A stretch of 64,000 bases of DNA from Parolsenella sp. (GTDB lineage Bacteria > Bacillota > Clostridia > Lachnospirales > Lachnospiraceae): positions 37,793-101,792 of the forward strand of contig CAVKVA010000008.1 in the NCBI GenBank assembly GCA_963659875.1. The letters run 5' to 3'. The translations under genes were made by a program, and so were the position numbers. The notes beneath the pieces are model-generated. The model worked only from the letters and a program-made list of their open reading frames with translations. It was not told the DNA's origin and did not search any database. Positions 47,291 to 64,000 of the stretch are shown here, one piece after another (position 1 is the stretch's first letter; every line of letters starts with the position of its first letter).

Positions 47291-47342
47291 AAAAACCTGT
47301 TGCAGTATTATCAAGTAACGGAGAATGTGAGGTTATGCAGCT

Positions 47343-47601: not shown

Positions 47602-47605
47602 ATGC

Positions 47606-47830
47606 TTATTTATCGGAGTTCTTCTCCTGATCGCGGGCCATGGTTTCGTCAATGGCCCGGTTGATGAAAGCAGTGGTGCTTTCTTCCATTGAGGCTGCAT
47701 GATCCTGGACGACGGTTCTGCGTTCCGGAGTCATGCGGACCTTTACTTCTACAAATTTACTATTGTATCTGGCATTGGCTTCCTTGCGGGCCTGCGTCAG
47801 TTTTCTTCCGGGTTTCTTCTCTTCACTCAT
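47606..47830 (-). CDS. ribbon-helix-helix (CopG/Arc-like) DNA-binding protein
   Basis: 74 aa. KFVEVKVRMTPERRTVVQDHAASMEESTTAFINRAIDETM follows the beta-alpha-alpha RHH pattern. The gene is divergent from the symE-parAB operon. Confidence 0.7.
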   Translation of the reverse strand: MSEEKKPGRKLTQARKEANARYNSKFVEVKVRMTPERRTVVQDHAASMEESTTAFINRAIDETMARDQEKNSDK

Positions 47831-47893
47831 TCATCTATTCTCTCAATCTGCCCGTTCGGGCGCAATATTCCAAAAAGATTATAGCATAAAGGC

Positions 47894-47968
47894 GGACATA
47901 AGACCATGTATTTTTAAAAGGACATGCGACCATACATTTTCTTGTTGACGGGACATGCGACTATGTCC
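47894..47968. promoter_or_regulatory. three GGACAT-N6-(C)ATGT operator-like repeats overlapping a promoter
   Basis: The repeats are GGACATAAGACCATGTA (47894), GGACATGCGACCATACAT (47920) and GGACATGCGACTATGTCC (47951). The third lies between TTGACG (47944) and TATAAT (47969). Confidence 0.45.
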
Positions 47969-48019
47969 TATAATGAAGCTCCAAAGGAAAATAGTACACA
48001 GATAGAAAGGAGCAAATCT

Positions 48020-48337
48020 ATGACAAGAAAACGTAAAGAATACAGGGAACTAAAGGTAAGCAGCTTCAGCGGATACGGCTATAAGACAGCGCCTATGCTG
48101 CGGATTCAGGGACTGTGGCTGGAGGAGCTTGGCTTCAATGTGGGAGAGCCGATTCTGGTTAAGTGCGAGGATGGTAAGCTGGTCATTACTGTGGATCGTG
48201 ACAGAGCCATTGCCAAGGAGAAGGAACAGGCTTATCTGGATGCGGAGATGAAGAAGCTGCAGAAGAAGTTTGAGGCTGAGAAGAAAAAGATTTACCAACA
48301 GGTCGTTGCTGAGAGAAAAGAGGTGTATGGCGCATGA
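48020..48337 (+). CDS. SymE-family (AbrB-fold) toxin-like protein
   Basis: 105 aa. APMLRIQGLWLEELGFNVGEPILVKCEDGKLVITV matches the SymE/SpoVT-AbrB pattern, followed by a K/E-rich tail. The RBS is GAAAGGAG. The track start 47924 is too far upstream. Confidence 0.65.
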   Translation: MTRKRKEYRELKVSSFSGYGYKTAPMLRIQGLWLEELGFNVGEPILVKCEDGKLVITVDRDRAIAKEKEQAYLDAEMKKLQKKFEAEKKKIYQQVVAERKEVYGA

Positions 48338-49122
48338 TGGGAAAGATAATAATGATCGGTTCCATGAAGGGCGGCGTGTCAAAGACCGTGACGACATTCA
48401 ACTTGGCATATTCTCTGGCTAAGCTCGAAAGGAAGGTATTGGCTGTTGATTTCGACAGTCAGGCAAACTTAAGCACCTGCTTTGGAGTGGAGAACACAGC
48501 GACTCTTCCGGTAAGCATCGGAAGCCTGATGTTAAATCAAATCGAGGATGAAGAGATGCCGGAGACTTCAAAATTTATTATGAGCCGTAACGGTGTGGAT
48601 TTTATTCCATCATCCATATTGCTCTCTGCAGTGGATTCCAAACTGAGGCTGGAGATGGGAGCAGAAAAGATGCTCTCACAGATCCTGGAGCCGCTTCACA
48701 CTTCCTATGATTATATTCTGATAGACACATCACCTTCTCTTGGAGCATTAACTATCAATGCACTGGCTGCAGCCGATGAGGTAATCATTACTGTGAATCC
48801 TCAGCTTCTGGCAATGATGGGACTTCAGGATTTCTTAAAGACAGTAAAGAAGATTAAGAGCAGAGTAAATGAAAGGCTTGAGGTGGCAGGCATATTGCTC
48901 ACTATGTGCGATGCCAGAACCAATCTCTGCAGGACTATTACAGAGCAGGTAAATGAAACCTTCCAGGGACAGATCCGAATCTACGAGAGCATGATTCCAA
49001 ATACTGTAAAGGTTGGTGAATCCGTCTATTATTCGGAACCTCTTCTGGAATATGCACCGGAATGTAAGGCCAGTGAGGCTTATCTGAAATTTGCGGAGGA
49101 GGTAGTTGCCGATGAAAAGTAA
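48334..49122 (+). CDS. parA: ParA/Soj family partition ATPase
   Basis: A deviant Walker A (GSMKGGVSKTVTTFNLA), DFDSQANL and ILIDTSPSLG are present. The start forms an ATGA overlap with the symE-like stop. Confidence 0.9.
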   Translation: MMGKIIMIGSMKGGVSKTVTTFNLAYSLAKLERKVLAVDFDSQANLSTCFGVENTATLPVSIGSLMLNQIEDEEMPETSKFIMSRNGVDFIPSSILLSAVDSKLRLEMGAEKMLSQILEPLHTSYDYILIDTSPSLGALTINALAAADEVIITVNPQLLAMMGLQDFLKTVKKIKSRVNERLEVAGILLTMCDARTNLCRTITEQVNETFQGQIRIYESMIPNTVKVGESVYYSEPLLEYAPECKASEAYLKFAEEVVADEK

Positions 49123-50089
49123 TGCTCCAAAAAGACAGATTTTCGATGCAGTTGACCTGCTGACAGAAACGCCACCAGCACCGGCAAATAACTCTAAGAA
49201 AAAGAATGGAGTGGTGATGCTGAAGCTGGATGATATCAAGCCTTTCCATGATCATCCTTTTCATTTGTATGAGGGCGACCGGCTGGATGATATGGTGGAG
49301 AACATCAAGGATCATGGAGTGCTAAATCCGGTTATCGTCAGGACCACAGCGGATGGCTATGAAATGCTTTCCGGTCATAACAGACAGAATGCTGCAAGGC
49401 TAGCTGGCCTTGCAGAAATTCCGGCAATTGTGAAGGAGAACCTTCCGGATACAGATGCCTATGTATATGTCATCGAGACCAATCTGATGCAGAGGTCCTT
49501 TACGGATCTGGAGATATCTGAGAAGGCGGCAGTGCTGAAGGAACGGTATGACAAGGTCCTTTATCAGAGACAGAGGGAAAACATTATGGCTGAGGTGGCC
49601 AAGCTGGAAGGTAAGCCTTTAAAAGGTGGTCACGGTGACCAACATTTCAATAACCGCGATGAAGTCGGAAAAGAGTATGGGCTATCCGGCAGTTCCGTGG
49701 GAAGACTTTTAAAGGTAAACGACTTGATTGTGCCACTTCGTCACAAGCTGGATAATGGATCCCTGATATTTAAGGTGGGAATACAGCTCGCTTTTCTGAC
49801 AGAGGAAGAGCAACAGCTGGTGTATGAGCAGATGATGGAACTGCATGTGAAGCTGACTATGACGATGGCCATCAAGCTGAGAGAGCATTCCGGAGATCTG
49901 AATCTGGCAATGGTAAGAAGATACCTGACTAAGACGGTGGAACCGAAAGATAAGCCGATGAATGTTAAGGTGCCTGAGACCTTATCCAAGAAATATTTCA
50001 AAGGGAAGGACCAGAAGACTATTGAAGATATAATGGAGAAGGCACTGGCTGCCTGGTTTGCAGCAGAGAGTGTAGGTGCCGATGTTTGA
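49112..50089 (+). CDS. parB: ParB/Spo0J-like partition protein
   Basis: The ParB N-terminal domain is GVLNPVIVRTTADGYEMLSGHNRQNAARLAGLAEIPAIV. ATG 49112 follows GGAGGAGG and overlaps the parA end. Confidence 0.85.
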   Translation: MKSNAPKRQIFDAVDLLTETPPAPANNSKKKNGVVMLKLDDIKPFHDHPFHLYEGDRLDDMVENIKDHGVLNPVIVRTTADGYEMLSGHNRQNAARLAGLAEIPAIVKENLPDTDAYVYVIETNLMQRSFTDLEISEKAAVLKERYDKVLYQRQRENIMAEVAKLEGKPLKGGHGDQHFNNRDEVGKEYGLSGSSVGRLLKVNDLIVPLRHKLDNGSLIFKVGIQLAFLTEEEQQLVYEQMMELHVKLTMTMAIKLREHSGDLNLAMVRRYLTKTVEPKDKPMNVKVPETLSKKYFKGKDQKTIEDIMEKALAAWFAAESVGADV

Positions 50090-50357
50090 TGAAAAGAGTC
50101 TTAAGAAAATAGATCCGGTCTATTTCAATATCATATTGGCGGACGATATGGATGTGACAATTCAGAGCAGAAATACCGGGCGTTACTGGTATCTGCACTG
50201 CGCCGGCTATCCGACGGAAGAAGCGCTGGTAATCTTTCATAAGCATCATTTTAAGGATGGATATCATCAGCATGGAAGAGCCAGGACACTGAGGCAGGCG
50301 ATAAAAAGTATTCAGGGACACGATGATTATCAATTGAATGTAAGGAAATGCATATAG
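50082..50357 (+). CDS. hypothetical protein (91 aa), last gene of the par operon
   Basis: ATG 50082 overlaps the parB stop. I recognise no family. Confidence 0.45.
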   Translation: MFDEKSLKKIDPVYFNIILADDMDVTIQSRNTGRYWYLHCAGYPTEEALVIFHKHHFKDGYHQHGRARTLRQAIKSIQGHDDYQLNVRKCI

Positions 50358-50365
50358 AAAAATGA

Positions 50366-50402
50366 GCGGCGGTATCTTCGTGATGAGGATATCGCCGCTT
50401 TG
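50366..50402. terminator. stem-loop between convergent genes
   Basis: GCGGCGGTATC-(11 nt)-GATATCGCCGC is an 11-bp stem with one G-T pair, followed by TTTGG. Confidence 0.5.
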
Positions 50403-50425
50403 GTAGTTACGGGTTAGCTTACAGC

Positions 50426-51028
50426 TTATTCTCCGTAGTAGAGCTTCTTAGCAAGCTCCTGAGCTGCTTTAATATCGGCGTAGCCCTGAGATTTGCCAAG
50501 ATGTAATTCTTCAAGAATCTGGCCTTTGGTGTAATCTTCGCAGATGAGATCCAGAATGCGGCCGTACTTCGGATTGATTATATGGATCTGCTTTAACAGA
50601 TCATCAATGATCATGCGGAGCATAACGGTATCTTCCAGATTTTCCGGTGATGCAGGCTCGAAACCTTTGCCATCTTCTGATTCGGCTTCTTCCAGAAACT
50701 GATCCAGGGAAAGAGTATCGTCTGTCTGGAAGGATGCAAAGTATTCACGTACATCACGATAGAAGCTTTTGATGGCAGCAGCTTTGTTCTCAGTTGCCAC
50801 CGGTGCAAAGGCTATCAGAACCTTATTCGGTCCGATATGCCAGGTCTCAAGGTTGTCACGGCACATGTTGAAGTGCTTGACCATTTCCCAGTCTACACGG
50901 ATCGGGACGAGGCACTCGCCCTGGTGTAGCGGAAGATTGTTGTAGCTGCGACGGTTGCCGTAGTTGTGATTGTCATTGGTTGACTGATGATTTTCAGTAC
51001 TTGTTTGTACATTTACATTGATTTCCAT
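50426..51028 (-). CDS. hypothetical protein with C-terminal sigma-70 region-4-like HTH
   Basis: 200 aa. The C-terminal ILDLICEDYTKGQILEELHLGKSQGYADIKAAQELAKKL resembles a region-4/LuxR-like HTH. The N-terminal domain is unknown. Confidence 0.4.
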   Translation of the reverse strand: MEINVNVQTSTENHQSTNDNHNYGNRRSYNNLPLHQGECLVPIRVDWEMVKHFNMCRDNLETWHIGPNKVLIAFAPVATENKAAAIKSFYRDVREYFASFQTDDTLSLDQFLEEAESEDGKGFEPASPENLEDTVMLRMIIDDLLKQIHIINPKYGRILDLICEDYTKGQILEELHLGKSQGYADIKAAQELAKKLYYGE

Positions 51029-51260
51029 ATCGTGCGGCCTCCTGTGTCCGCTGAAAGCGGAACGAAGGCTTCGATATGAAATTCAGATAAGCATCGATTG
51101 ACTTATTCATGGCACGTCTCCGTTCCGAAAAATAAGCAATCAGGCTTCTTAGCCCCTGATGCGGTTTATAAGGTTTATCACGCCACAACTCTAAGAAGAG
51201 GGCCGCGTCCGGCAGTTGCTTTGTGATGGAGCAGTTTTACGTCGTGCTCGGGACGGGTAT

Positions 51261-51452
51261 TTAATTGTCGTTTGCCATCAGATATAAATCACTGAAAGCA
51301 GATTCGTAGTCGCTTGGACTGAGTTCTTCAGCAGAGTTAACACCGAATCTTTGAAAGACGGACTTCGCTACATCAGAACCATATTCAGCACTTACTTTGT
51401 CAGCGGCATCCTGAATGCTGTCTAACATATCTCTGTTGCTGTACCAGCTCAT
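51261..51452 (-). CDS. hypothetical small acidic protein (63 aa)
   Basis: ATG 51452 is preceded by GGAGG, on the same strand and upstream of the 50426-51028 gene. Confidence 0.4.
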   Translation of the reverse strand: MSWYSNRDMLDSIQDAADKVSAEYGSDVAKSVFQRFGVNSAEELSPSDYESAFSDLYLMANDN

Positions 51453-51673
51453 TTTCTGTACCTCCATATTCCGTCCGCTCATTCTGCCGGGCCCTGGCGT
51501 TGGCAGACATATTTCAAAAGAAATTTTAAAGTCGATTTGAGTTGATTTATAACCAATGACCACCGAGAAAGTTGATTCATAAGACCACTTATGCTAAGAT
51601 GGAAATTGGGTTTTTATATCAACTGATAACCGCTTCCTACATTTTTCTTTTGATGATTTAAGGATACCAATCG

Positions 51674-51739
51674 AAAAAGGGACTTACATTATGGGAGACT
51701 ATCGATAAAAAGGGACTTTTGGGACCAAAAAAGGGACTT
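51674..51739 (+). repeat. three direct copies of AAAAAGGGACTT immediately upstream of the first gene of the defence array
   Basis: Copies lie at 51674-51685, 51707-51718 and 51728-51739. The last abuts start codon ATG 51741. Confidence 0.6.
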
Positions 51740-51740
51740 G

Positions 51741-52580
51741 ATGAAAAAGATAACGATTAAAGAATATTCCGATGCTGTGAAGAAGAGTTTTGGCATCACG
51801 ATTAGCCAAGGTCAATTCATGCGTGAAATGTTTACAGCGGCTGGATCTGATAAATTCTCCTCTCGATCCGACGAGGATTATGCAAAAAAAATCTGCAATG
51901 GTTCCAAACCCATTACAGATGAAATGAAAAACAGCTTCCCAAAGCCATACCGTGTTAAAGCTGTGGCTACATATCTGACAGGGAAAAATGCTGAATCAAA
52001 GATATATAATCTTGCACTATTTTTTGAAGTACAGCATGCGGATGTAAAAAAGGAGCATCTCTTAAAAGCTATAGCTGCTCAGTTCTTCTTATACGTTGAA
52101 GGTGGAGGGCAGGATAAGGCTGAGGAGAATCAAGTTCCGGTAACCTATCAGAGACTTTTAGACGGTACCATTGATGAAAATGTACTGGGTTTTCCTCTAT
52201 ATTCCGGAGATCGGGCATGGGTAATAAATGGCCAAAGAGTAAGAGCCTATACAAAAGGATTTTACGAAAAGTTTAAACATGTCTGGGATATTCGAAATAA
52301 TGGAAAAGTAGTCTGGAGCGGCCGCAAACTAATATGCAGAAGCGAAAGTACACAATATATAAAGTTAGATAAGCTGGAACTGGACATCCCCGAGACTGAA
52401 CCTGGGGGTCGTTTTGAAATTACAGTAGATGTGGATTCCAGAGGTAAGGAAGGCACATTTGAAAGTATCTGGGAAATGATTGACAGCAACGGTAATAATT
52501 GTTTTCCAGATGATAAGAAACAGTTTGCATTTACAGTAACTGTTATTAACAAATCACGGAGAGCGATGGAGGCTGAGTGA
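51741..52580 (+). CDS. protein with unknown N-terminal domain and C-terminal NBR1-FW / Ig-like domain
   Basis: The C-terminal FKHVWDIRNNGKVVWSGRKLIC...ELDIPETEPGGRFEITVDVDSRGKEGTFESIWEMIDSNGNNCFPDDKKQFAFTVTV follows the W.v.N.G...W / p.v.PGe..e.sv...aP...G.y.s.W.m pattern of the NBR1-like Ig domain. Confidence 0.5.
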   Translation: MKKITIKEYSDAVKKSFGITISQGQFMREMFTAAGSDKFSSRSDEDYAKKICNGSKPITDEMKNSFPKPYRVKAVATYLTGKNAESKIYNLALFFEVQHADVKKEHLLKAIAAQFFLYVEGGGQDKAEENQVPVTYQRLLDGTIDENVLGFPLYSGDRAWVINGQRVRAYTKGFYEKFKHVWDIRNNGKVVWSGRKLICRSESTQYIKLDKLELDIPETEPGGRFEITVDVDSRGKEGTFESIWEMIDSNGNNCFPDDKKQFAFTVTVINKSRRAMEAE

Positions 52581-52798
52581 TGAGTGACAATACAATCGAG
52601 AAATGGTCAACATTAAAAGAAGTACAGGAGCATTTAGGAGTAGGACGCGAGACAATTCTTCAGTGGATCGCAAAGAAGAATATGCCTGCGTATAAGATGG
52701 GACGGCTCTGGAAATTTAAAATATCTGAAGTTGATGCATGGGTTAAGTCTGGGGAGGCTGCAGATAATTCAGCACCGCAGGATCAGGAAAATCAATAA
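52580..52798 (+). CDS. excisionase-family / MerR-like helix-turn-helix DNA-binding protein
   Basis: 72 aa. WSTLKEVQEHLGVGRETILQWIAKKNMPAYKMGRLWKFKISEVDAWV is the classic excisionase-type HTH. The start overlaps the stop of the preceding gene (TGATG). Confidence 0.7.
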   Translation: MSDNTIEKWSTLKEVQEHLGVGRETILQWIAKKNMPAYKMGRLWKFKISEVDAWVKSGEAADNSAPQDQENQ

Positions 52799-52815
52799 TT
52801 TTTACGGAGGCAGTA

Positions 52816-53739
52816 ATGGGGGATCAAATTCTCAGCAAAACATTAAATGAAAAATTTGATACCGTTTTCGAAGAGGTGGAACATTCAGAGTCCTTAGGAC
52901 TGATGAATAAGAACGACCTCAAATTATTCTGCCTGGATATAGAAAATAATGAGTTCAGCTTTGATCCATTGATAGAATTCCTGACAGATAATCTGGGCCA
53001 GTATGTTTTTTCCAGGGCTGAGATTGATGATCTTAAGATGGATGGTAAAGAACAGACAGTTGCGCTAAAAGCGGTCAGAAGATTGTATAAAGCAGGAAGA
53101 CCTGACGAGAAAGGAACCGGAAACGAGCTCGGGGAGGTACTTGACTATTGCTTCTTTGAGCATGTACTTGGTGCTCCCAAAATCCTCAGTAAATATGAGC
53201 AAATATCTGTCGGAGGAATCTATAAAGCAAAGAGCTCAGGTGTCCATCTGCTGACAGTGGGTGATGAGACAGCACCGGCATATCAGCTGGTGTATGGAGC
53301 ATCCGGAATAATTGACGATATACAGGATGCAATAGATAAAGCTTTTGAGGAGATTGCTGCAGTTTCAGGCGGTCAGAGGCAGGAACGCCAGGTAGTAGAT
53401 AGTACCATTATGGGCAAAAGCTTTGATAATCAGACAACAGAAAGGCTTAAGGAAGTTCTTCTGCCAAGCAAGAAGAAAATACCGGTAGATAACGCTTATG
53501 GCATGTTTATAGGTTACACCCTTGGCTTAGATGTAGATCAATATACAAATGAAGAATTCAGGGCTGAGGCTCAGAGCAAGATGCGTTTGGATCTTCAGCA
53601 TCATGTTCAGTATATCGTGGATAAGGTCAATGAGTTGAAACTGAGTAGGTGCTCTTTCTATATCTATGTACTTCCGCTTAACAGTGCACTTTCAGATAAA
53701 AAAGAAGTTATGGATAGACTGCTGGGAGGTGACGACTGA
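52816..53739 (+). CDS. hamA: Hachiman HamA (DUF1837-like)
   Basis: 307 aa, immediately upstream of and overlapping a large SF2 helicase gene. The GNELGEVLDYCFFEHVLGAPKILSK helix is typical of DUF1837. Confidence 0.7.
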   Translation: MGDQILSKTLNEKFDTVFEEVEHSESLGLMNKNDLKLFCLDIENNEFSFDPLIEFLTDNLGQYVFSRAEIDDLKMDGKEQTVALKAVRRLYKAGRPDEKGTGNELGEVLDYCFFEHVLGAPKILSKYEQISVGGIYKAKSSGVHLLTVGDETAPAYQLVYGASGIIDDIQDAIDKAFEEIAAVSGGQRQERQVVDSTIMGKSFDNQTTERLKEVLLPSKKKIPVDNAYGMFIGYTLGLDVDQYTNEEFRAEAQSKMRLDLQHHVQYIVDKVNELKLSRCSFYIYVLPLNSALSDKKEVMDRLLGGDD

Positions 53740-56348
53740 TGCCGGATAACGCTGAAAACCAGGTTCGGCTTGCAGATGCCATTTACCAGAATATTTTGGA
53801 AAATGAGTATCTTCAGGAACTCTATGCGGCAATACTACATAACTACACGATTAAATTATTTGGGGACGATCAGAAATATTGTGTCGAATTCGACAAGATA
53901 GACGCATTGCGGTTTGCAGATATTTTATCCAAGTCCTCTTATAATGAGAAATCTGATGTACATAAATCACTTGCGCAGGAAATGGTTACGCTTTTGGATT
54001 ATTTATATCCGAATGATGAGGATGTCGCTTTTTATGCCGGTTCCGTTTTGACCAACACCTGCAATTTCCGAGGCAGGGATTTGATGGCTCCAGAGTACAA
54101 GAGCAGTTCACTTTTTGAACAGCTGTATTCTGAAGTTATGAAGGAATATCTGGAAGTTCCAGGAGATGAAGAAAAGCACTTTTTCAGATCGCAGAAGGAA
54201 GTATACGATCATTTTGAGGATGGAAGTTTCAGCTACTCAGGACCTACTTCTATGGGTAAATCCTTTGTTATGCAGACCTTCATAAAAAATCAGATAGAAC
54301 TGGATAAGGGCTATAATTTCGCACTGCTGGTTCCGACCAAGGCATTGATTAATGAGGTGACGAGTGAACTGACAAAGACGCTTCGGAATTATTTTGCAGA
54401 GAAGGATTACAGAATCGTTACTTCAGCAGGCGCAGTGGTCCTGAAAGATGTACATCACTTCATTTTTATCATGACGCCGGAAAGAATGGCTTACCTTCTG
54501 ACTTTATATAGAGACATGCCGATAGACTATATCTTTATAGATGAGGCACATAAAATTTCAGAAGAAGACTCCAGAAGTGCTTTTTACTATTCGGTTGTGG
54601 AGAAATTATGCAACAGACAGAACAAACCGAGGATTATTTTTGCATCTCCCAATATCCCGAATCCGGAAATCTATCAGCAGTTAATTCCGGAAGGAACAGA
54701 TTTGGTAAAAAATCAGATGGCTTCTGAATACACACCTGTGAGTCAGGTTAAGTTCCTGGTGGATTTTAATCATGGTGAAATTAAATACTATGATTCGATA
54801 AAGCGATGTCTGACATATGCCAGTCAATTAACAGGAGATGAAAACCTTTACAGGCTTCTTATAAAACTCGGAGGAAGTTCGAAGAATCTGGTGTATTGTC
54901 ATTCTAAAACGAGAGTCATTGAGTATGCTCAGACTTTTGCGGCTATGCTTCCGGAACTCCATGACCCAGACTTGGATGCATTGTCGGATGAGATAAAGGA
55001 TGAGGTATATAATGATTATTTCCTTGCAGAGACGGTAAAAAAAGGCGTGGCCTACCATATGGGGTACCTTCCCGCTGCACTGCGCCTTAGGATAGAGGAA
55101 CTGTTTCGTCAGGAAAATAAGATACATACCATTGTGTGTACAAGCACTTTGCTTGAAGGAGTAAATCTTCCTGCGGATAACTTATTTGTGACACATTATC
55201 TAAACGGAAAGAAAGAACTGAATGAGGTGGCGTTCAGAAATCTTCTGGGTCGCGTTGGACGCATACAGTACAACCTTTACGGAAATGTATACCTTATGGC
55301 ACTTGAAAAAGGAACTGATACACAGAAGTATGCTGAAATGCTTCAAAAGGAAGTTCCTAAGCAGGAATTGTCAATAAGAAAGACGCTTACAAAGCATCAG
55401 GAGAAAAAGATAATAGAGCACTTGAAGCAGGGCAACACCGAACTTGATAAAACGAGTGCACAGACATTGGATGAGTTTGCTCTGATGAGGAAATTCATGG
55501 TAATGCTTCTGAGAAGCATATTAAACGATATCGATAGCCCGGTAAGGAAAGAATTTAAGGATTTACTGACGGACGAAGTTGTTAATCAGATTAAAAATGC
55601 CTTCTCGGGGAAAGAAAGTGAACTTGATGATCTGAATATCACTCCGGATCAGTCTGAGAAACTTTATTTTGCTATAAAAAATGGTTTGAAGTATCCCAAA
55701 ATCAATATTTACGGCTATGTGGATAATAAGGAGCTAATGGCATTCCTCGAAAAACTGAATGAAATATTTAACTGGAATAAATATGATCGCTCCCTTGTAG
55801 GAGGGGAATCAAATGGTGAGCATCCGGTGCTGAAAAGAAATGCGGTCGCTCTGTCAAAATGGTTTAAGGGAATGAGCATTCAGCAGATGATCAAGGATTC
55901 CATTGAATATAAAAAGGCCAGTGGACAAAAGGTCTATTTCCCGGATCATTCAAAAGAGTCGTATAACGGATCCGCCAGACACAATAATCAGATAGCGGCG
56001 GATGTGCTTAACGACATTAATGATGTAATTCTGTTTAGTTTTTCCAATTACTTTATGGCATTTTCATCCGCGTATAAAGCCTTTATAGGAGAAGAGAGCT
56101 TTTCGAATGATTGGTATGAATATGTGGAATATGGTTCTGTCAATCCATTAACCATCATGTTGCAACGTAATGGCTTTTCGAGAGAAGCAGCAACGTTCAT
56201 TACTGAAAATGAGAGGATCTATGTTGAAGCAACAGATGATGGCGCTCGGCTCAAATTGACTTTGCTTAATTGTGGAAAGACTACGGTTGAGCGTGAGGCC
56301 CAAATCATTCACATCAATATGCCGGAATTATTTATAGAACACAATTGA
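53739..56348 (+). CDS. hamB: Hachiman HamB (SF2 DEAD/DEAH-box helicase)
   Basis: 869 aa with Walker A GPTSMGKSF, DEAH box FIDEAHKI, and helicase-C motifs CTSTLLEGVNLPA and LLGRVGR. The start forms an ATG/TGA overlap with hamA. Confidence 0.8.
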   Translation: MPDNAENQVRLADAIYQNILENEYLQELYAAILHNYTIKLFGDDQKYCVEFDKIDALRFADILSKSSYNEKSDVHKSLAQEMVTLLDYLYPNDEDVAFYAGSVLTNTCNFRGRDLMAPEYKSSSLFEQLYSEVMKEYLEVPGDEEKHFFRSQKEVYDHFEDGSFSYSGPTSMGKSFVMQTFIKNQIELDKGYNFALLVPTKALINEVTSELTKTLRNYFAEKDYRIVTSAGAVVLKDVHHFIFIMTPERMAYLLTLYRDMPIDYIFIDEAHKISEEDSRSAFYYSVVEKLCNRQNKPRIIFASPNIPNPEIYQQLIPEGTDLVKNQMASEYTPVSQVKFLVDFNHGEIKYYDSIKRCLTYASQLTGDENLYRLLIKLGGSSKNLVYCHSKTRVIEYAQTFAAMLPELHDPDLDALSDEIKDEVYNDYFLAETVKKGVAYHMGYLPAALRLRIEELFRQENKIHTIVCTSTLLEGVNLPADNLFVTHYLNGKKELNEVAFRNLLGRVGRIQYNLYGNVYLMALEKGTDTQKYAEMLQKEVPKQELSIRKTLTKHQEKKIIEHLKQGNTELDKTSAQTLDEFALMRKFMVMLLRSILNDIDSPVRKEFKDLLTDEVVNQIKNAFSGKESELDDLNITPDQSEKLYFAIKNGLKYPKINIYGYVDNKELMAFLEKLNEIFNWNKYDRSLVGGESNGEHPVLKRNAVALSKWFKGMSIQQMIKDSIEYKKASGQKVYFPDHSKESYNGSARHNNQIAADVLNDINDVILFSFSNYFMAFSSAYKAFIGEESFSNDWYEYVEYGSVNPLTIMLQRNGFSREAATFITENERIYVEATDDGARLKLTLLNCGKTTVEREAQIIHINMPELFIEHN

Positions 56349-56418
56349 GTCCGTATTTTGGGACAATTAAAATGATAGCCTGATAGTGGCTAATAATATA
56401 TGAAAGGTGGAAGCGCTT

Positions 56419-57609
56419 ATGGCCAAACCAGGTGAAAAATTTTACATAGATGCCCGTGGCGTTAAAGCAGAAGGCGTGGTTACAGAGAACGGATTCCTTG
56501 TGTTTAAAGGCAGCCAGGTCCGTGATAAGATAGCAAACTATTTAAATCAAACATTAAAAGACTTGAGGAAGATTTCTGCAGAGGATGGAACTATTGTAGA
56601 TAATCTTCTTACAAGGGATATGGAATTTAAGAGTCCGTCAACCGCAGCATATTTCCTGTTTGGAGCCAATGCCAGCGGTCCGCAGACATGGAAAGATGAA
56701 AACGGAATGACTATGTTGGAGCATGACAAGCTTGAGGCTGGAATTCTTAAAGATCCTACTGACCGTGAATATCTTGGTTTCCTGAAAACTGTTGAAGGTA
56801 ATGAGGGAAGCAAATGCTATTATCCGACTCGTTTGGATACTTATGGCTGTGGTTGTGGACATGATTGCAGTTACTGTTATGCAAAGGATATGATTCAGCG
56901 ACTGTCAGGACCTGACGGCTGGGATCCGAAGCATCCTAAAATCGCTGATACATGGCGAATTGAAAATCGTATAAAGCGCGGGGACTTAAAAGCAGGAGAC
57001 GTAGTAAGGCTTGGTGGGCTTACGGATTGTTTCCAACCAGTAGAGCTTAAATACCATACTACACTTGAGACAATCAAGATCCTTAATAATTATGACATTG
57101 GGTATCTGATTGTTACCAAGTCTCATTTGGTGGCAAATCCGGAGTATTTGGAAGTTATGAGAAAGGATCTGGCGCATATTCAGATTACAACGACAAGTTT
57201 TGATTCGAAAATCTGTAAGAAATATGAGAAGGCCAGTCCACCGTCAAAACGTGTTGAAGCGATAGAAAAGCTTCAGAGCGAAGGCTTTGATACATTCTTT
57301 AGACTTAGCCCTTATGTAGATGGGTGGATTGACTTTGATAAGCTGAACCAAGTCGCCTGTGACAAAATTCTGGTGGAGTTTCTTAGAGTGAATACTACCA
57401 TCCTTCGGCAATTTGATATAGATGCATCAGCTTATACCTATAATGACAATGGATATATGAACCTGCCGCTGGAGCGTAAACTTGAAATATTATCGAAAAT
57501 TACCGGGTTCAAAGAGGTGACGGTATGTGATGATTGCACGGAGCATTATAACTACTTCCGTGATCATTTTAATCCGAATCCTCATGATTGCTGCAACTTG
57601 AGAAAATAG
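56419..57609 (+). CDS. DUF4357-like N-terminal domain fused to a radical SAM domain (SplB/COG1533-like)
   Basis: The N-terminus KFYIDARGVKAEGVVTENGFLVFKGS...EFKSPSTAAYFLFGANASGPQTWK is the DUF4357 pattern. The radical SAM cluster motif is CGHDCSYC (CX3CX2C), and GGLTDCFQP lies downstream. ATG 56419 follows the RBS GAAAGGTGG. Confidence 0.75.
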   Translation: MAKPGEKFYIDARGVKAEGVVTENGFLVFKGSQVRDKIANYLNQTLKDLRKISAEDGTIVDNLLTRDMEFKSPSTAAYFLFGANASGPQTWKDENGMTMLEHDKLEAGILKDPTDREYLGFLKTVEGNEGSKCYYPTRLDTYGCGCGHDCSYCYAKDMIQRLSGPDGWDPKHPKIADTWRIENRIKRGDLKAGDVVRLGGLTDCFQPVELKYHTTLETIKILNNYDIGYLIVTKSHLVANPEYLEVMRKDLAHIQITTTSFDSKICKKYEKASPPSKRVEAIEKLQSEGFDTFFRLSPYVDGWIDFDKLNQVACDKILVEFLRVNTTILRQFDIDASAYTYNDNGYMNLPLERKLEILSKITGFKEVTVCDDCTEHYNYFRDHFNPNPHDCCNLRK

Positions 57610-57627
57610 ATAGGAGATTAAGAGAAG

Positions 57628-60249
57628 ATGGCTGTTAAGAAAAATGAATTATACAGTTCTTTATATGCAAGCTGCGATAAGCTTCGCGGTGGTATGGATA
57701 CCTCACAGTACAAGGACTATATCCTTACTTTGCTTTTTGTGAAGTATGTAACAGATAAATTCAAGGGCGTAAAGTACGCCGACATTGTAGTGCCAGAGGG
57801 TGGAAGTTTTGATGATCTTATTGCTCTCAGAGGAAATAAGAATATTGGTGAAGAAATAGATAAGGTGATTGCAAAACTCGCCGAAGAAAATGAACTGCGC
57901 GGTGTTATTGATAATGCCCATTTTAATGACGAGACAAAGCTGGGAAAAGGCCAGGAGATGGTGGACAAACTCACGGGACTTATCGGAATCTTCATGCGTC
58001 CAGAATTTGACTTTAAGCACAACAAAACTAGCGGCGACGATATCTTGGGTGATGCTTACGAGTATTTGATGCGTAAATTTGCTACCGAGAGTGGAAAGAG
58101 TAAAGGACAGTTCTATACTCCGGCAGAGGTATCTCGAATTCTGGCCAAGGTAGTTGGAATTGGAAAGATTAAACCTAGAGAGGAAGGATATTCCGTATAT
58201 GATCCGGCCTGTGGATCTGGTTCGTTGCTTATTCGTGCTGTTGATGAGGCTCCTTTTGAAATAGCTATATACGGTCAGGAGAAGGAGACCACCACGGCTG
58301 GTCTTGCAAAGATGAACCTTGTACTTCACAACAAGGCGGCTGGTGAAATTCATGCAGCGGATACATTTTCATCACCTCAGTATTTTGAAGAAGGCTCTGA
58401 TAATCAGGTGCTTAAGCGTTTTGATTTTGCTGTAGTTAATCCTCCATTTTCACTTAAAAACTGGACAGATGGTCTTAAAGATTATGGCAGATTTACAGGT
58501 TATGGAGATAATCCTCCAGAGAAAAATGCTGATTTCGCTTGGCTGCTTCATATTATCAAGTCTATTAAGAATACAGGAAAGGCTGCCATTGTAGAGCCTC
58601 ATGGCGTTCTTTTTCGAGGAAATGCTGAGGCTACAATCCGTCAGTCAATTGTAGACAGGGGATATATTAAGGCAATTATTGGCCTTCCAACAAACCTTTT
58701 CTATGGTACAGGTATACCTGGTTGCATTATTGTACTTGATAAAGAGGATGCAGATGAGAGAAGTGGCATCTTTATGATTGATGCTAGTCACGATTTTATT
58801 AAAGACGGAAACAAGAATAGACTCCGTGAAGAGGATATTTATCGTATTGTTACAACATTTGATAATCAGCTTGAAGTACCGGGATATTCCAGAATGGTAC
58901 CAATGGAAGAGATTAAGGTAAAGAATGGATATAACCTCAATATTCCAAGATATATCGATTCCGGAGCTAAGGAAGACATTCAGGATATTGAAGCACATCT
59001 GCATGGAGGAATTCCTGCCGCTGATGTGGATTCACTTGGAAAGTATTGGACTTTATTCCCAGGACTTAAGGACAGGTTATTCTCTGTTGAACGAGAGGGC
59101 TACTATAAGCTGAATATTGATATAGATGAGGTAAGAAACATCATATACAATGACGAGCAGTTTGCAGCATACGCAGACCGTATTGAAAATGCATTTGATG
59201 CATGGAAGCAGAAGGTAGATGAAGGCCTGAGAAGCATTAATTCAGAGACCAATATTAAGCAGTACATTGTAGAACTTTCAGAACAGTTGGTAAAAGAGTT
59301 TGAAGATGTAGAACTTATTGATAAGTATGACGTCTATGAAGTGCTGCTGTCATACTGGCAGGAGACCATGGCTGATGATGTTCTTATTGTTACTTACGAT
59401 GGATATGAAGCCGGCAGGGAAATCGTTGACATCAAAGAGATTAAAAAGAAAAAGGATGGTACGGAAGAGGAAAAAATCAAGGGATGGGAAGGGAAAATTA
59501 TCCCGCGCCCGCTAATGGAGCAGACTTTCTTCAAATCCGAGTGTGATGAGATAGCAAAGCTTCAAGCAGAGATGGATGAGGCTGATAGCAAGCTTTCTGA
59601 ACTTATTGAAAATACGGCAGATGACTCGGCTCTTTCAGATGTAATAGAGGATGGAAAAGTTAAAGCTACGGATGTGCAGACAAAGATTGACGAAATATTA
59701 AGCTACACAGAAAATGAAGAAGTTACAGCATTGCTTGCAATGGCTGATGCTTTTCCTATGAAGAAAAAAGAATACCAGGATTATATAAAAATCCATCCTA
59801 TATGTGAGAATGCCTATAATGGCGGAACTACTATAAGTAAGAAAACAATTACTGCAAGAATTGCCGAGATCCGTTCACAACTTCCTGTAAAAGAAATGTA
59901 CGAAGAGGACTTTGATGAATTAAAACAGGTGGCTGAAAATATTGCTATTTTATCAGATCTTAAATCAAAAATTAAGACTTTATCTACAGAACTCGAGGAG
60001 AAGGTTAAAGCTAAGTATTCAGAGCTTACAGATGAAGAAATCAAGATGTTGCTGATTGATCTTAAGTGGTATGCAGCTTTGAGGGATGGCATTGATAGTT
60101 TATATGTGGCGGCTTCACATAATATTTCTAACAGAGTGATTGAACTCGCTGAGAGATATAAGGATACATTGCCTGAACTTGAAATATCTGTGGCAGACTA
60201 TGAGTCAAAGGTGAAGGCTCATCTGGAAAGGATGGGGTTTGCATGGTAA
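57628..60249 (+). CDS. hsdM: type I restriction-modification system methyltransferase subunit (long form, 873 aa)
   Basis: An HsdM_N-like start (YKDYILTLLFVKYVTDKF), FYTPAEV, motif I DPACGSGS and motif IV NPPF are present. A roughly 420-aa C-terminal extension follows the usual end (NLNIPRYID). Confidence 0.9.
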   Translation: MAVKKNELYSSLYASCDKLRGGMDTSQYKDYILTLLFVKYVTDKFKGVKYADIVVPEGGSFDDLIALRGNKNIGEEIDKVIAKLAEENELRGVIDNAHFNDETKLGKGQEMVDKLTGLIGIFMRPEFDFKHNKTSGDDILGDAYEYLMRKFATESGKSKGQFYTPAEVSRILAKVVGIGKIKPREEGYSVYDPACGSGSLLIRAVDEAPFEIAIYGQEKETTTAGLAKMNLVLHNKAAGEIHAADTFSSPQYFEEGSDNQVLKRFDFAVVNPPFSLKNWTDGLKDYGRFTGYGDNPPEKNADFAWLLHIIKSIKNTGKAAIVEPHGVLFRGNAEATIRQSIVDRGYIKAIIGLPTNLFYGTGIPGCIIVLDKEDADERSGIFMIDASHDFIKDGNKNRLREEDIYRIVTTFDNQLEVPGYSRMVPMEEIKVKNGYNLNIPRYIDSGAKEDIQDIEAHLHGGIPAADVDSLGKYWTLFPGLKDRLFSVEREGYYKLNIDIDEVRNIIYNDEQFAAYADRIENAFDAWKQKVDEGLRSINSETNIKQYIVELSEQLVKEFEDVELIDKYDVYEVLLSYWQETMADDVLIVTYDGYEAGREIVDIKEIKKKKDGTEEEKIKGWEGKIIPRPLMEQTFFKSECDEIAKLQAEMDEADSKLSELIENTADDSALSDVIEDGKVKATDVQTKIDEILSYTENEEVTALLAMADAFPMKKKEYQDYIKIHPICENAYNGGTTISKKTITARIAEIRSQLPVKEMYEEDFDELKQVAENIAILSDLKSKIKTLSTELEEKVKAKYSELTDEEIKMLLIDLKWYAALRDGIDSLYVAASHNISNRVIELAERYKDTLPELEISVADYESKVKAHLERMGFAW

Positions 60250-61484
60250 AGGAAGAAATGAAATTTATCGAGACAGGGTATATTATCCAAGATTGGGACG
60301 ATGATATTATATCGAACTTTGCCAGTACATCCTCAGGCGGAACTCCTTCAAGATCGATAGCATCATATTATGAGGGAAATATTAAATGGTTAACTACGAG
60401 TGAATTACGAGATAACTTAATTGATGATTCAATTGAATATATAAGTGAAGCAGCATTGAAAAATTCATCTGCAAAAATTTTTCCGCAAGATACAGTCTTG
60501 ATGGCCATGTATGGGGCTACAATTGGGCGATTAGGAATTCTTACTACTGAATCTGCCACAAATCAAGCTTGCTGCGCAATGATGTGCAATCCTAAAAAAT
60601 GCGATTACAAGTATTTGTTTTATTCATTGCAAGGAATGAGGGACTATATTATTTCTTTAGGTAGTGGAGCTGGCCAGCCTAACATTAGTCAAAACATTGT
60701 TAAAAATTTGCGTGTCGCTTTGCCTGATTTAGAAGAGCAGAAAACTATTGCAACAGCTCTTTCTGATATTGACGAATTAATTGATAATCTTGAGAAACTT
60801 ATTGAAAAGAAAAAGAATATCAAGCAAGGTGCAATGCAGGAACTGTTGACAGGAAAGAAAAGACTGCCAGGATTTACAAATAACTGGGAGGAGGCTTTTC
60901 TTAATGATATTTCATCAAGCATGACAGATGGCCCATTTGGAAGTGATTTAAAAACTGAACACTATACTTCAGAACATGAAGTAAGATTAATCCAGCTCAG
61001 TAACATAGGCGAAGATGGATGGAACAATGACAATACTAAATATACAACTTATGAGCATGCCAATGAACTTAGTCGGTGCAAAGTCAAACCAGGAGACATT
61101 GTAATTGCAAAGATGATGCCAGCAGGAAGGACGATAATCTGTCCTGACATAGAAAAAGACTATATTCTTGCGTCGGATGTTGTAAAGTTTGTACCTAATG
61201 AAAAAGTAAATTCTAAATATTTTGTTTATGCAACAAAAAGTGAGTTCTTTTTAGAGCAAGTTGCTGAAAATACCCAAGGCAGTACAAGAGCAAGAACGAG
61301 CATTAGTAAGTTGAGAAAAATATCTATTATGTTACCTGATATAGAGGAACAACAAGCTATAGCTAACTTATTAGGCGATATGGATAACGAAATTAACATG
61401 TTATGCAGAAAACTTGCAAAAACAAAATTGTTAAAGCAGGGAATGATGCAGAAATTACTGACCGGTGAAATCCGTCTAGTATAA
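60243..61484 (+). CDS. hsdS: type I restriction-modification system specificity subunit
   Basis: 413 aa. Two target-recognition halves are each followed by a conserved helix (LPDLEEQKTIATALSDIDELI and LPDIEEQQAIANLLGDMDNEI). The start overlaps the hsdM end. Confidence 0.85.
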   Translation: MVKEEMKFIETGYIIQDWDDDIISNFASTSSGGTPSRSIASYYEGNIKWLTTSELRDNLIDDSIEYISEAALKNSSAKIFPQDTVLMAMYGATIGRLGILTTESATNQACCAMMCNPKKCDYKYLFYSLQGMRDYIISLGSGAGQPNISQNIVKNLRVALPDLEEQKTIATALSDIDELIDNLEKLIEKKKNIKQGAMQELLTGKKRLPGFTNNWEEAFLNDISSSMTDGPFGSDLKTEHYTSEHEVRLIQLSNIGEDGWNNDNTKYTTYEHANELSRCKVKPGDIVIAKMMPAGRTIICPDIEKDYILASDVVKFVPNEKVNSKYFVYATKSEFFLEQVAENTQGSTRARTSISKLRKISIMLPDIEEQQAIANLLGDMDNEINMLCRKLAKTKLLKQGMMQKLLTGEIRLV

Positions 61485-61497
61485 GGAGGTGATCAGT

Positions 61498-64000
61498 ATG
61501 CCAAATATTGGCGACGCTGAAAGAAACACACAGAATAGAGTAGTGAAGTTGTTTATAGATAAGCTTCATTACACTTATCTTGGAGATTTGCATGATACTG
61601 AGAATACCAACCTTATGCCAGATTGGATCATGGCTTATTTAAGCAAAATGGGCTATGGCGATAAACTGGCTAAAGGTGCCGTTCTGGAACTGGAACGTAC
61701 ATCTACCAACCTCCAGCAGGGACTTTATCATGCCAATAAGTCGGTATATAGCCTTTTAAAATATGGTGCCAAGGTAAACGATGAAGCAGGGACTCCAAAG
61801 ACGGTATATTTTATCGATTTTGAAACTCCGGGAAACAATGATTTTTACGTTGCAGAAGAGGTTACAGTTAAAGGTGATCATACAAAGAGACCGGATGTGG
61901 TCCTTTATGTAAATGGTATTGCATTGGCTGTAATTGAACTCAAGAAGAGTAGCGTATCTGTCTCTAATGGCATCAGACAGAATCTCACTAACCAACGCGC
62001 TCATTTCATTGAAGATTTCTTTACTACTATACAGTTTTGCATGGCAGGAAATGACAGCGAAGGGCTTCGTTATGGCACATTGCTTACTCCTGAGAAATAC
62101 TATTTGGAATGGAAACAGGATGGCTTTAGAAATCAATTTGATGAGCTAGATGAGTCAGATCTTAGGATAGAAGAATATTGTAAATCCGTTGATGAAAAGC
62201 TGGATGAGCAGATTTATTCGATGTTCTACAAGAAGCGTTTTCTTGAGTTGATCCATGATTTTATCATTTTTGATAAGGGTGTAAAAAAGGTTTGCCGATA
62301 CAATCAGTTTTATGCTATCAAGCGAGCACAACACCGATTGGTAGACAAAAAGACCGGCGGTATTGTATGGCATACTCAAGGATCTGGTAAGAGCCTTACC
62401 ATGGTTTGGCTGGCAAAATGGGTACTTGCAAATAATCCCAATGCCAGGGTTCTTATCGTAACAGATAGAGATGAACTGGACGATCAGATAGAAAAGTTAT
62501 TTATCGGTGTAGAGGAGAATATTGTTCGTACAAAGAGCGGTAAAGATCTGATTGAAAGAATAGACAAATTTGACGATCGGCTGCTTTGTTCTCTAGTACA
62601 TAAGTTTGGTAAACGTGGTGGTGAAGCAACAGAAAAAGATTACGACAAGTATGTTGAGGAACTGAAAGAATCACTACCTGCCAATTTCTCTGCTAAAGGC
62701 GAATTTGTCATATTTGTAGATGAATGTCATAGAACACAATCTGGTAAGTTGCACACTGCGATGAAGGTAATTATTCCAAAAGGAATATTTATCGGTTTTA
62801 CAGGTACACCTCTGCTGAAGAAAGATAAGAAAACTAGTCTTGAGACATTTGGTGGTTATATCCATACTTACAAATTTGATGAAGGTGTAAGGGATGGAGT
62901 TATTCTTGATCTTCGCTATGAGGCAAGAGACGTACCACAGGATATAACATCCCAGGATAAGGTTGACGCATGGTTTGATGCTAAAACTCAGGGCCTTTCA
63001 TCAAGAGGAAAGGCGAAACTGAAGCAACTTTGGGGAAACATGCAGAAAGTATTTTCTTCCAGATCAAGGCTGGAGAAAATTGCCAATGATATTATATTCG
63101 ATTTTGCTACTAAGCCAAGACTTATGGATGGCAATGGAAATGCTATTCTCGTAGCTGGCTCAGTCTATTCTGCATGTAAATATTATGAGATATTCCAAAA
63201 TAAGAACTTTAAAAAGTGTGCCATCATTTCATCATATACACCGAATGCAGGAGACTTAAGGACAGATACTGTAAGTGAAGAGGAAGAAACAGAGACTTTC
63301 GAGAAGTATTCCATTTATCTGAAGATGATAGGCGTATCAGAAAGTGATGACTCTACCTCTGTGGCAAAGGCTGTAGAGGCTTTTGAGACAGAAGCTAAAC
63401 GTAAATTTGTTGAAGAGCCTAATAACATGAAGCTCCTTATCGTTGTTGATAAGCTGCTTACAGGATTTGATGCTCCTCCGTGTACTTATCTTTATATTGA
63501 TAAGGCAATGCACGACCATGGTTTGTTCCAGGCCATTTGCCGTGTAAACAGACTAGACGGTGATGCTAAGGATTTTGGCTACATTGTTGATTATAAGCAG
63601 CTTTTTGGTGATCTGACAGATGCCATGAATACATATACCTCAGGCGCATTTGAATCGTATGATGCCGAGGATGTTCAGGGACTCTTAAAGGACCGTACAG
63701 ATGAAGCAAGGAAGTATTTCGAAGATACTCTGGACGAGATAGAGGAACTGTGTGATGGAGTGGAAATGCCGAAAACACAAATTGACTATATTCATTACTT
63801 CTGTGGTGAGAATGGTGTCCCGCTCGACGAAGAGTCTGACGAAGCTTATGCAAGAATTAGGGAAAGACTGTATAAACTTGTGGCAAGGCTTGTTCGTGCA
63901 TATGCTGAATTGAAACCGAGAATGGATGATATTGGTTATTCAGCAGAACAACGTTCAAAATTTGAAGAAAAAGTAACCTTCTATGTAGACTTGAGGCAGG
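61498..64000 (+). CDS. hsdR: type I restriction enzyme R subunit, N-terminal about 834 aa (ORF runs off the window)
   Basis: This ORF is not in the supplied track. ATG 61498 follows AAGGAGG, and I translated the frame by eye to the window end without a stop. It has the nuclease motif RPDVVLYVNGIALAVIELKK, the Walker A HTQGSGKSLTM and FVDECHRTQSGK. Confidence 0.9.
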   Translation, partial: MPNIGDAERNTQNRVVKLFIDKLHYTYLGDLHDTENTNLMPDWIMAYLSKMGYGDKLAKGAVLELERTSTNLQQGLYHANKSVYSLLKYGAKVNDEAGTPKTVYFIDFETPGNNDFYVAEEVTVKGDHTKRPDVVLYVNGIALAVIELKKSSVSVSNGIRQNLTNQRAHFIEDFFTTIQFCMAGNDSEGLRYGTLLTPEKYYLEWKQDGFRNQFDELDESDLRIEEYCKSVDEKLDEQIYSMFYKKRFLELIHDFIIFDKGVKKVCRYNQFYAIKRAQHRLVDKKTGGIVWHTQGSGKSLTMVWLAKWVLANNPNARVLIVTDRDELDDQIEKLFIGVEENIVRTKSGKDLIERIDKFDDRLLCSLVHKFGKRGGEATEKDYDKYVEELKESLPANFSAKGEFVIFVDECHRTQSGKLHTAMKVIIPKGIFIGFTGTPLLKKDKKTSLETFGGYIHTYKFDEGVRDGVILDLRYEARDVPQDITSQDKVDAWFDAKTQGLSSRGKAKLKQLWGNMQKVFSSRSRLEKIANDIIFDFATKPRLMDGNGNAILVAGSVYSACKYYEIFQNKNFKKCAIISSYTPNAGDLRTDTVSEEEETETFEKYSIYLKMIGVSESDDSTSVAKAVEAFETEAKRKFVEEPNNMKLLIVVDKLLTGFDAPPCTYLYIDKAMHDHGLFQAICRVNRLDGDAKDFGYIVDYKQLFGDLTDAMNTYTSGAFESYDAEDVQGLLKDRTDEARKYFEDTLDEIEELCDGVEMPKTQIDYIHYFCGENGVPLDEESDEAYARIRERLYKLVARLVRAYAELKPRMDDIGYSAEQRSKFEEKVTFYVDLRQ

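Follow-up and report, generated by a model that had tools for sequence, protein, structure and literature searches.

We examined a gene that joins a DUF4357 module to a radical S-adenosylmethionine (SAM) enzyme and that leads a type I restriction-modification (R-M) operon in Parolsenella sp. The gene, hereafter the fusion gene, lies in a stretch of 64,000 nucleotides (nt) of contig CAVKVA010000008.1 (positions 37,793 to 101,792); this whole stretch is referred to as the window, and coordinates are given in its own numbering. Profile scans confirmed the Hachiman proteins HamA and HamB upstream of the fusion gene and HsdM and HsdS downstream. In the window (57628-64000), as in its relatives, hsdM, hsdS and hsdR are adjacent and co-oriented, as in a type I R-M operon. 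The features of the locus are as follows.

56349-56418, + strand: spacer of 70 nt between hamB and the fusion gene, with a Shine-Dalgarno-like AAAGGTGG and one weak promoter-like match at 56345-56373
56419-57609, + strand: DUF4357-radical SAM fusion gene, 396 amino acids (aa) plus stop; opens the type I R-M operon
56419-56733, + strand: N-terminal module of ~105 aa that contains DUF4357, order beta-beta-beta-alpha-beta-alpha-alpha-alpha, related to RAMA at the profile level only
56764-57606, + strand: radical SAM catalytic domain, residues 116-396, with a predicted fold like that of spore photoproduct lyase (SPL); matches a stand-alone phage protein
56854-56877, + strand: CGHDCSYC, the C146-x3-C150-x2-C153 motif of the [4Fe-4S]/SAM cluster; the next codon, Y154, is at 56878-56880
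57013-57039, + strand: GGLTDCFQP motif, residues 199-207
57439-57462, + strand: beta-hairpin predicted in the AlphaFold2 model, residues 341-348, late in the barrel, with conserved G345-Y346
57526-57594, + strand: C-terminal invariant cysteines C370 (57526-57528), C391 and C392 (57589-57594), to which C133 at 56815-56817 is added
57610-57627, + strand: spacer of 18 nt between the fusion gene and hsdM, containing AGGAG; homology with the related contig L172 ends at 57621
57628-60249, + strand: hsdM, 873 aa, long form
60243-61484, + strand: hsdS, 413 aa
61498-64000, + strand: hsdR, N-terminal 834 aa, continuing past the window end; 72-74% identical to HsdR of contigs L003 and L008

The program-made list of open reading frames (ORFs) starts the gene at GTG 56407. 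Because every homologue begins MAKPGEKF, we placed the start at ATG 56419, and AAAGGTGG is located 8 nt before this codon. The end of hamB at 56348 leaves the gap of 70 nt. No terminator-like site was found on the + strand in either the 70-nt or the 18-nt spacer, and the promoter-like matches in the upstream spacer did not exceed the number expected from shuffled sequence. A first-pass annotation, made from the letters of the window alone, had given this ORF with the same two spacers and no terminator on either side, and had divided the protein into a DUF4357 module and a radical SAM core bearing the motifs CGHDCSYC and GGLTDCFQP. All of these assignments held. In Pfam, DUF4357 (PF14267) matched residues 53-99 at 50.1 bits (50-53 bits across scans) against a cut-off of 38.4, and Radical_SAM (PF04055) matched residues 143-293 at 49 bits against a gathering cut-off of 29.5. 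The annotation had also proposed searches with hidden Markov models (HMMs) of the COG1533/SplB branch. The best NCBIfam matches all came from this branch, although they scored far below their own cut-offs: PA0069, Rv2578c and radical SAM mobile pair B (TIGR04470) gave 74.9, 35.7 and 52.4 bits against cut-offs of 360, 430 and 410, respectively. None of the curated HMMs names the fusion family.

At E <= 1e-5 the search for homologues gave 4969 proteins, and more than 100 of the best 120 were full length with both Pfam domains, at 52-97% identity. This architecture is far beyond chance and belongs to a conserved family. No record identical to the window protein was found by exact look-up, and the sole source name carried by relatives was the JGI label 'DNA repair photolyase'. 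An alignment of 74 sequences contained many invariant residues, and the counts that follow were taken over 142 fusion and phage sequences. C133, C146, C150, C153, Y154, C204, C370, C391 and C392 were invariant or lost in one sequence. Together with Y154 the cluster motif reads CxxxCxYCY, in which Y152 (Tyr in 140 of 142) and Y154 flank C153. Within GGLTDCFQP, T202, D203 and F205 were invariant and C204 was present in 141 of the 142. The two motifs highlighted by the annotation are thus invariant, or nearly so, throughout the family. Judged from this pattern, C133, C370, C391 and C392 may form an auxiliary metal or Fe-S site, of a kind not described for SPL. At residue 348 (57460-57462), Asn is found in the window protein and in its close relatives P0002, P0004 and P0010, and His in 138 of the 142 sequences. 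This is the only departure of the window protein from positions conserved in at least 95% of sequences.

We compared 15 independent contexts of the fusion gene (the window, L172, L003-L006, L175/L176, L007, L096, L008, L010, L177, L178, L179 and L092-L095). In all 15, hsdM or hsdR started immediately downstream of the fusion gene on the same strand. Where genes had been called (11 loci), the spacing to this hsd gene lay between an overlap of 4 nt and a gap of 18 nt, and in L092-L095, which were read by tblastn only, the hsdM match began 14-73 nt past the stop where it reached the N-terminus. The type I systems themselves varied. Gene orders after the fusion gene were M-S-R, M-M-S-R or R-S-x-(x)-M, the C-terminal types of HsdR included EcoR124_C, EcoEI_R_C and T1RH-like_C, and HsdM proteins of different lineages were just 23-28% identical to one another. 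Upstream of the fusion gene there was often a small HTH_26 gene. The first-pass annotation had linked the gene to type I R-M and had named a survey of neighborhoods as a check. This survey placed fusion-gene homologues in hsd operons and none in a housekeeping or repair context, so that the link was borne out at 15 of 15 independent loci. The one exception that we met, L001 (a Clostridia metagenome-assembled genome), has no hsd genes nearby and is adjoined by a GmrSD-like gene. Its ORF (681-2309) encodes a 542-aa chimera in which fusion residues 1-283 are followed by an unrelated C-terminus with an HNH-type motif, and without the conserved C-terminal third it looks like a rearranged remnant. 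A single-protein scan of genome contigs listed two loci, one chimera and one distant relative.

The annotation had also placed the gene directly after the neighboring Hachiman genes; membership of Hachiman in the same unit did not survive the comparison. Considered from the window alone, the fusion gene could be an accessory third gene of Hachiman: it shares a strand with hamB and begins 70 nt past that gene with no intervening terminator, and L172 and L173 are arranged alike. These two contigs, however, are the only co-occurrences of HamA/HamB with the fusion gene besides the window, and they are of the same lineage at 92% DNA identity (91.6% to window 50616-57621). HamA/HamB were absent from the remaining 13 contexts. 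Since HamA/HamB are confined to the window's lineage, Hachiman is a lineage-specific neighbor, and we rejected an accessory role in Hachiman as exceedingly unlikely. L172 was informative in a second respect. Its homology to the window ends 12 nt past the stop of the fusion gene (window 57621, L172 7021), and past this breakpoint the type I cassette is a different one, whose HsdM has 524 aa, compared with 873 aa in the window, and whose HsdR is of the EcoR124_C type. The adjacency to type I genes outlasts replacement of the cassette. We note that so sharp a breakpoint within the 18-nt spacer may mean that the 3' end of the fusion gene anchors type I cassette exchange.

Further genes recurred around these operons. 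The 3' ends of the hsd operons often carry a YgjP-like/SprT-like metallopeptidase, a DUF4186 protein, a 140-aa protein and further DUF4357 genes (L004 18911-19312, L007 16093-17187, L175 18708-19378 and L178 14151-14531). The DUF4186 protein is cysteine-rich (HGHP...CACCCRGC), the 140-aa protein is EVE/PUA-like by eye only, and the additional DUF4357 proteins are 103 and 277 aa long. Before the HTH_26 and fusion genes, L003 (7336-9693) and L175 (7408-9690) carry an AAA_13 ATPase of ~780 aa with two small upstream genes; this ATPase may be a further member of the island's defence genes.

In viruses the catalytic domain was found in a different form. A scan of viral contigs in IMG/VR found 326 contigs with a relative, and in the best 80 of these only residues ~116-396 were matched, at 50-60% identity, by ORFs of ~280 aa. 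Longer phage variants of 300-356 aa were set aside as start-codon over-extensions and not extra domains. Overall, the catalytic domain was 50-79% identical to the stand-alone phage copies. In a metagenome scan, fusions made up only 6 of the top 80 loci. Stand-alone phage genes are the main form of the catalytic domain, a point that goes beyond the first-pass annotation. Among deposited phage genomes there was one close match, an unannotated human fecal phage, and annotated phage and plasmid collections otherwise yielded distant PA0069 or mobile-pair-B relatives. No hsd genes were detected by tblastn near the stand-alone loci (0 of 153). Fusion with DUF4357 goes together with a leading position in a type I hsd operon.

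In phages the gene is positioned shortly before terS, terL, portal and head-morphogenesis genes. Of 79 phage loci, 41 contained a gene with a ParB_N domain; in 20 this gene came directly after the radical SAM gene, and some of these genes were fusions of ParB_N to an N6/N4 methylase or to DUF4417. C5 methylases occurred in 12 of the 79 loci, and one cluster (P0116) had a phage neighborhood with PAPS reductase, ERF and SSB genes. In ~10 of the 79 loci, for example L017 and L067, the gene was accompanied by DpdA-like (phrog_887) and Vut_1/YhhQ-type transporter genes, which suggests 7-deazaguanine DNA modification in the same cassette of those phages. A QueE-like role in 7-deazaguanine synthesis was rejected, because the linkage was found in a minority of loci and there was no QueE-type NCBIfam match.

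The catalytic domains of fusions P0104, P0105 and P0112 were 78-79% identical to phage copies and ~54% identical to the window protein. In a neighbor-joining tree the fusions did not form one clade, in part because P0114 is a truncated fusion but also because some fusions adjoined phage copies. A single fusion event was therefore dropped as an explanation. Given the similarity of the fusion and phage catalytic domains and the lack of a single clade, the domain has moved between phages and R-M loci repeatedly, or recombined. The same chemistry is expected in the phage and R-M settings.

We then considered the N-terminal module. Residues 1-115, used as the query in an exhaustive HMMER search, gave 1311 representatives at E <= 1e-3. 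The matches span residues ~6-101 and are roughly double the length of the Pfam DUF4357 model, which has 54 positions and covers only about half of this ~100-aa module. Many of the proteins carry 2-6 tandem copies; P0144 and other relatives are tandem arrays, with up to six copies in a 1207-aa protein. When 113 representatives were scanned, DUF4357 was found in all, RAMA (PF18755) in 40 at E < 1e-3 and GIY-YIG in 18, and a few carried HEPN_Swt1, TIR_2, a STAND NTPase or HSDR_N. At the level of profiles, then, the whole ~100-aa module overlaps with the RAMA family, which the first-pass annotation had not proposed. The RAMA module was defined from adenine-methylase R-M systems, with a predicted role in reading N6-methyladenine (m6A); the RAMA domains of CcrM and MPND bind the backbones of double-stranded DNA, that of MPND without clear m6A preference (PMC9963953, PMC4738411). 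The literature lists DUF4357 on GmrSD, McrB-type and GIY-YIG/T5orf172 proteins, where its function is given as unknown. On the strength of these sequence relationships, the N-terminal module is most likely a DNA reader. Modeled separately it reached a predicted local distance difference test score (pLDDT) of 90. A family-profile search of PDB sequences found no solved relative of it, and a word-index homologue search with the module alone returned fragments only.

The nearest relatives by architecture are GIY-YIG-DUF4357 proteins, such as the PADLOC candidate PDC-S14, together with further fusions of DUF4357/RAMA in R-M and type IV systems, which share the same ~100-aa module. The GIY-YIG proteins also share the kind of locus, and extra DUF4357 genes end the hsd operons in L007 and L175. 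They differ in that the module is C-terminal on a nuclease, whereas in the fusion protein it is N-terminal, near neutral and joined to a radical SAM domain. The annotation had remarked on this unusual placement, and correctly so, since the relatives are mostly C-terminal modules of GIY-YIG-type proteins. In PADLOC, residues 5-102 matched profile positions 193-294 of 301 of PDC-S14 (E 5e-25), with no match to the N-terminal GIY-YIG-type part of that profile. This similarity raises the possibility that the fusion protein is an independent single-gene defence effector, in which DUF4357 serves as sensor and the radical SAM domain replaces the GIY-YIG nuclease and damages invading DNA, and in which co-location with type I genes is incidental or reflects co-mobilization. 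The match to the C-terminal part of PDC-S14 is what such an effector would show, as is the range of other DUF4357 partners (GIY-YIG, HEPN, TIR and HSDR_N, to which the literature adds GmrSD and McrB), and exchange of the type I cassette leaves the gene where it was. If the fusion gene were autonomous, however, then the 15 of 15 adjacency with tight gaps, which points to co-transcription or translational coupling with hsd, would not be expected. Hundreds of phages also carry close catalytic homologues, with neither sensor domain nor evident immunity gene. We regard an independent effector as unlikely, although it is the strongest of the rivals, and the context favors an R-M accessory over an independent gene.

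A structural model of the protein bears on its substrate. The AlphaFold2 model of the full protein had a mean pLDDT of 92 and a predicted template modeling (TM) score of 0.85. In a Foldseek search of the PDB the top six matches were all SPL, with E of 5e-10 to 4e-9 and TM scores of 0.45-0.54, while the remaining radical SAM enzymes followed at ~1e-4 and viperin at ~2e-4. The first-pass annotation had assigned the core to the SPL/COG1533-like branch rather than to viperins and had suggested this comparison of a predicted model with SPL; the ranking agrees with that assignment. Sequence searches did not reveal the same relationship. Neither phmmer nor profile searches of PDB sequences with the whole protein or the N-terminal domain gave a real match, SPL included (a match to Tako8 was a repeat artefact), and the SPL model was absent from the NCBIfam matches at E <= 0.01. 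Because neither the PDB sequence searches nor NCBIfam gave SPL, we consider the protein SPL-like in fold and not an SPL orthologue.

In SPL, Tyr96 and Tyr98 flank Cys97, Cys140 is the hydrogen-atom donor, and a beta-hairpin with Arg304 and Tyr305 has been proposed to flip the lesion out of the helix (PMC3467042). The fusion protein and SPL (SplB; PDB 4FHC/4FHF), its closest solved fold, have in common CxxxCxYCY with two flanking tyrosines, a conserved cysteine at some 40-50 residues from it, and a late beta-hairpin, predicted in the fusion protein, that bears a conserved aromatic residue. C204 lies 51 residues past C153, where the SPL spacing is 43, and by analogy it is a candidate counterpart of Cys140; the hairpin at 341-348 may likewise be analogous to the base-flipping hairpin. 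The differences are also considerable. Identity between the two is 14-16% at a TM score of ~0.5, no SPL HMM matches, the fusion protein carries the extra N-terminal DUF4357 module and four more invariant cysteines, and its gene is found in type I R-M operons or phages, not in spore or repair contexts. PA0069, Rv2578c and mobile pair B were the best profile matches (E 6e-21, 5e-9 and 5e-14, respectively), and some members of these families are on mobile elements. A motif region of the type TD-x-[FY]-QP is common to these families and the fusion protein. They differ from it in scoring 36-75 bits against cut-offs of 360-430, in identity of ~27%, and in having neither DUF4357 nor a known link to type I R-M. 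Prokaryotic viperins (pVips) resemble the fusion protein as radical SAM enzymes serving phage defence, but they belong to another branch (Foldseek E ~2e-4), act on free nucleotides and have no R-M link; the PADLOC match to pVip was not significant (14 bits, E 0.0046, 0 stretches).

Two further explanations were weighed against a DNA-modifying role. The substrate might be something other than DNA, either a nucleotide or small molecule, as for viperins, or a protein such as an Hsd subunit, with DUF4357 acting in regulation or protein binding. Both fusion domains are neutral to acidic, the only characterized defence radical SAM enzymes act on nucleotides, and the N-terminal domain has no structural match to a known DNA-binding fold, all of which would suit such a substrate. 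On the other side, Foldseek E-values place SPL ahead of viperins by some five orders of magnitude, the pVip match lacks significance, and the Pfam scan shows no SPASM or peptide-maturase features. The 23-28% identity among HsdM families argues against a specific protein partner. A non-DNA substrate is in our judgment decidedly improbable. The protein might instead be a DNA repair lyase in the sense of SPL, which reverses a base lesion or cross-link, for example one produced by restriction or by a rival's defence, and writes no mark. The SPL-like fold with its CxxxCxYCY motif and the JGI name of relatives fit this idea, and phages commonly encode repair genes. If repair was the function, then one might look for an SPL model among the NCBIfam matches and for fusion loci in repair contexts; the former was absent, and in place of the latter we found only R-M operons and the pre-terminase region of phages. 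Moreover, the named sources are gut or fecal, where ultraviolet photoproducts are presumably uncommon. We therefore hold a repair lyase to be very unlikely.

The reading that we prefer, and that we would back about as readily as doubt, is that the fusion protein is a radical SAM enzyme that acts on DNA as an accessory to type I R-M, in the role of a second-step modifier or de-modifier. According to this proposal the [4Fe-4S] cluster would cleave SAM to give the 5'-deoxyadenosyl radical. With a base of the DNA flipped into the active site in the manner of SPL, the radical would abstract a hydrogen from it, and the base would be converted to another chemical state without oxygen. The N-terminal module would deliver the enzyme to DNA. 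Its target would be a generic feature common to all type I systems, for example m6A or the unmethylated target, such that the enzyme could be combined with any type I cassette. Phage copies would carry out the same chemistry on phage DNA before packaging. We favor a non-destructive base conversion because the bare domain occurs in phages, any hsd cassette is tolerated, and in both settings the gene is directly followed by DNA-modification genes.

Several observations weigh against this proposal. A DNA substrate is suggested by a distant fold match between a predicted model and SPL, at 14-16% identity and a TM score of ~0.5. The N-terminal domain of the window protein scored 16 bits on RAMA against a cut-off of 35.2, and no Foldseek match to it in the PDB or BFVD was better than E 0.6, solved RAMA domains included. 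Within the fusions this domain is near neutral (median isoelectric point 6.6, net charge 0), whereas DUF4357 elsewhere has an isoelectric point of 9.0 and a net charge of +3; the catalytic domain is slightly acidic, and support for DNA binding from charge is therefore weak. Methylase genes were detected in only 17 of 79 phage loci, so the phage context does not require a methylated base as substrate. Since the partners of DUF4357 are mostly toxic effectors, a damaging role fits as well as a modifying one. Finally, the cassette swap in L172 could also mean that the fusion gene is an independent neighbor.

A more specific form of the DNA-modifying proposal, which we put forward tentatively and consider somewhat unlikely as it stands, is an oxygen-independent radical SAM base conversion in DNA that functionalizes or removes, for example, the methyl group of m6A or of another methylated base, as an anaerobic counterpart of dioxygenases of the TET, JBP and AlkB types. 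Gut and rumen phages would use this conversion to disguise their DNA, and type I operons would have captured the enzyme in fusion with a DUF4357/RAMA-type reader. That the family represents new enzymology on DNA is, in our estimate, a similarly modest prospect.

The remainder of the window provides the setting. GC content drops from ~56% to ~40% directly after addA, and the low-GC part (44900-64000) is a defence island bordered by AddB- and AddA-type helicase-nuclease genes (37684-44926). These bordering genes suggest a chromosome of the Firmicutes type with ~56% GC. No tRNA genes were found in the window. The island contains a C5 methylase with an NgoMIV-type endonuclease (45133-46917), a SymE-like toxin (47924-48337), ParA (48334-49122), ParB (49106-50089) and an HTH_17 gene (52577-52798), followed by Hachiman and the type I R-M operon. 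Upstream of HTH_17 and Hachiman lies a gene for a 280-aa protein (51738-52580) with an N_BRCA1_IG-like domain and a weak PADLOC match to LmuA, and this gene has the same position in L172 and L173. Outside the island there is a probable Wadjet/JetABCD-like cluster (15094-22992), with two upstream ORFs (15094-17480), a 1381-aa SbcC/Rad50-like protein (17490-21635) and a DUF3323+DUF2399 protein (21562-22992).

The components of the fusion gene and its operon are all of known kinds, namely a radical SAM enzyme, DUF4357 fusions and type I accessory genes. The combination appears to be new: searches of the available literature found no description of this architecture or of a radical SAM partner of type I R-M, in agreement with the first-pass annotation, which knew of no described system of this form. 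The PrrC and RloC anticodon nucleases are accessory genes embedded in type I R-M loci. Like the fusion protein they represent an extra enzyme genetically coupled to a type I system, possibly as a second layer; they differ in being ATPase-nucleases that act on tRNA. We know of no radical SAM member among type I accessory genes.

If the enzyme acts on DNA, radical SAM chemistry would join the repertoire of R-M and of phage counter-defence, and oxygen-free base modifications may have been missed by surveys of gut and rumen microbes that used sequencing or liquid chromatography-mass spectrometry. The stand-alone phage form and the reader-fused type I form offer a ready experimental contrast. The family also makes testable an orphan domain that is common in defence loci, since DUF4357 can now be treated as a ~100-aa module, often in tandem, joined to varied effectors. 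If the more specific proposal is true, the captured enzyme would create or police a second epigenetic layer in R-M, and it would be the first radical SAM enzyme working within a restriction-modification system.

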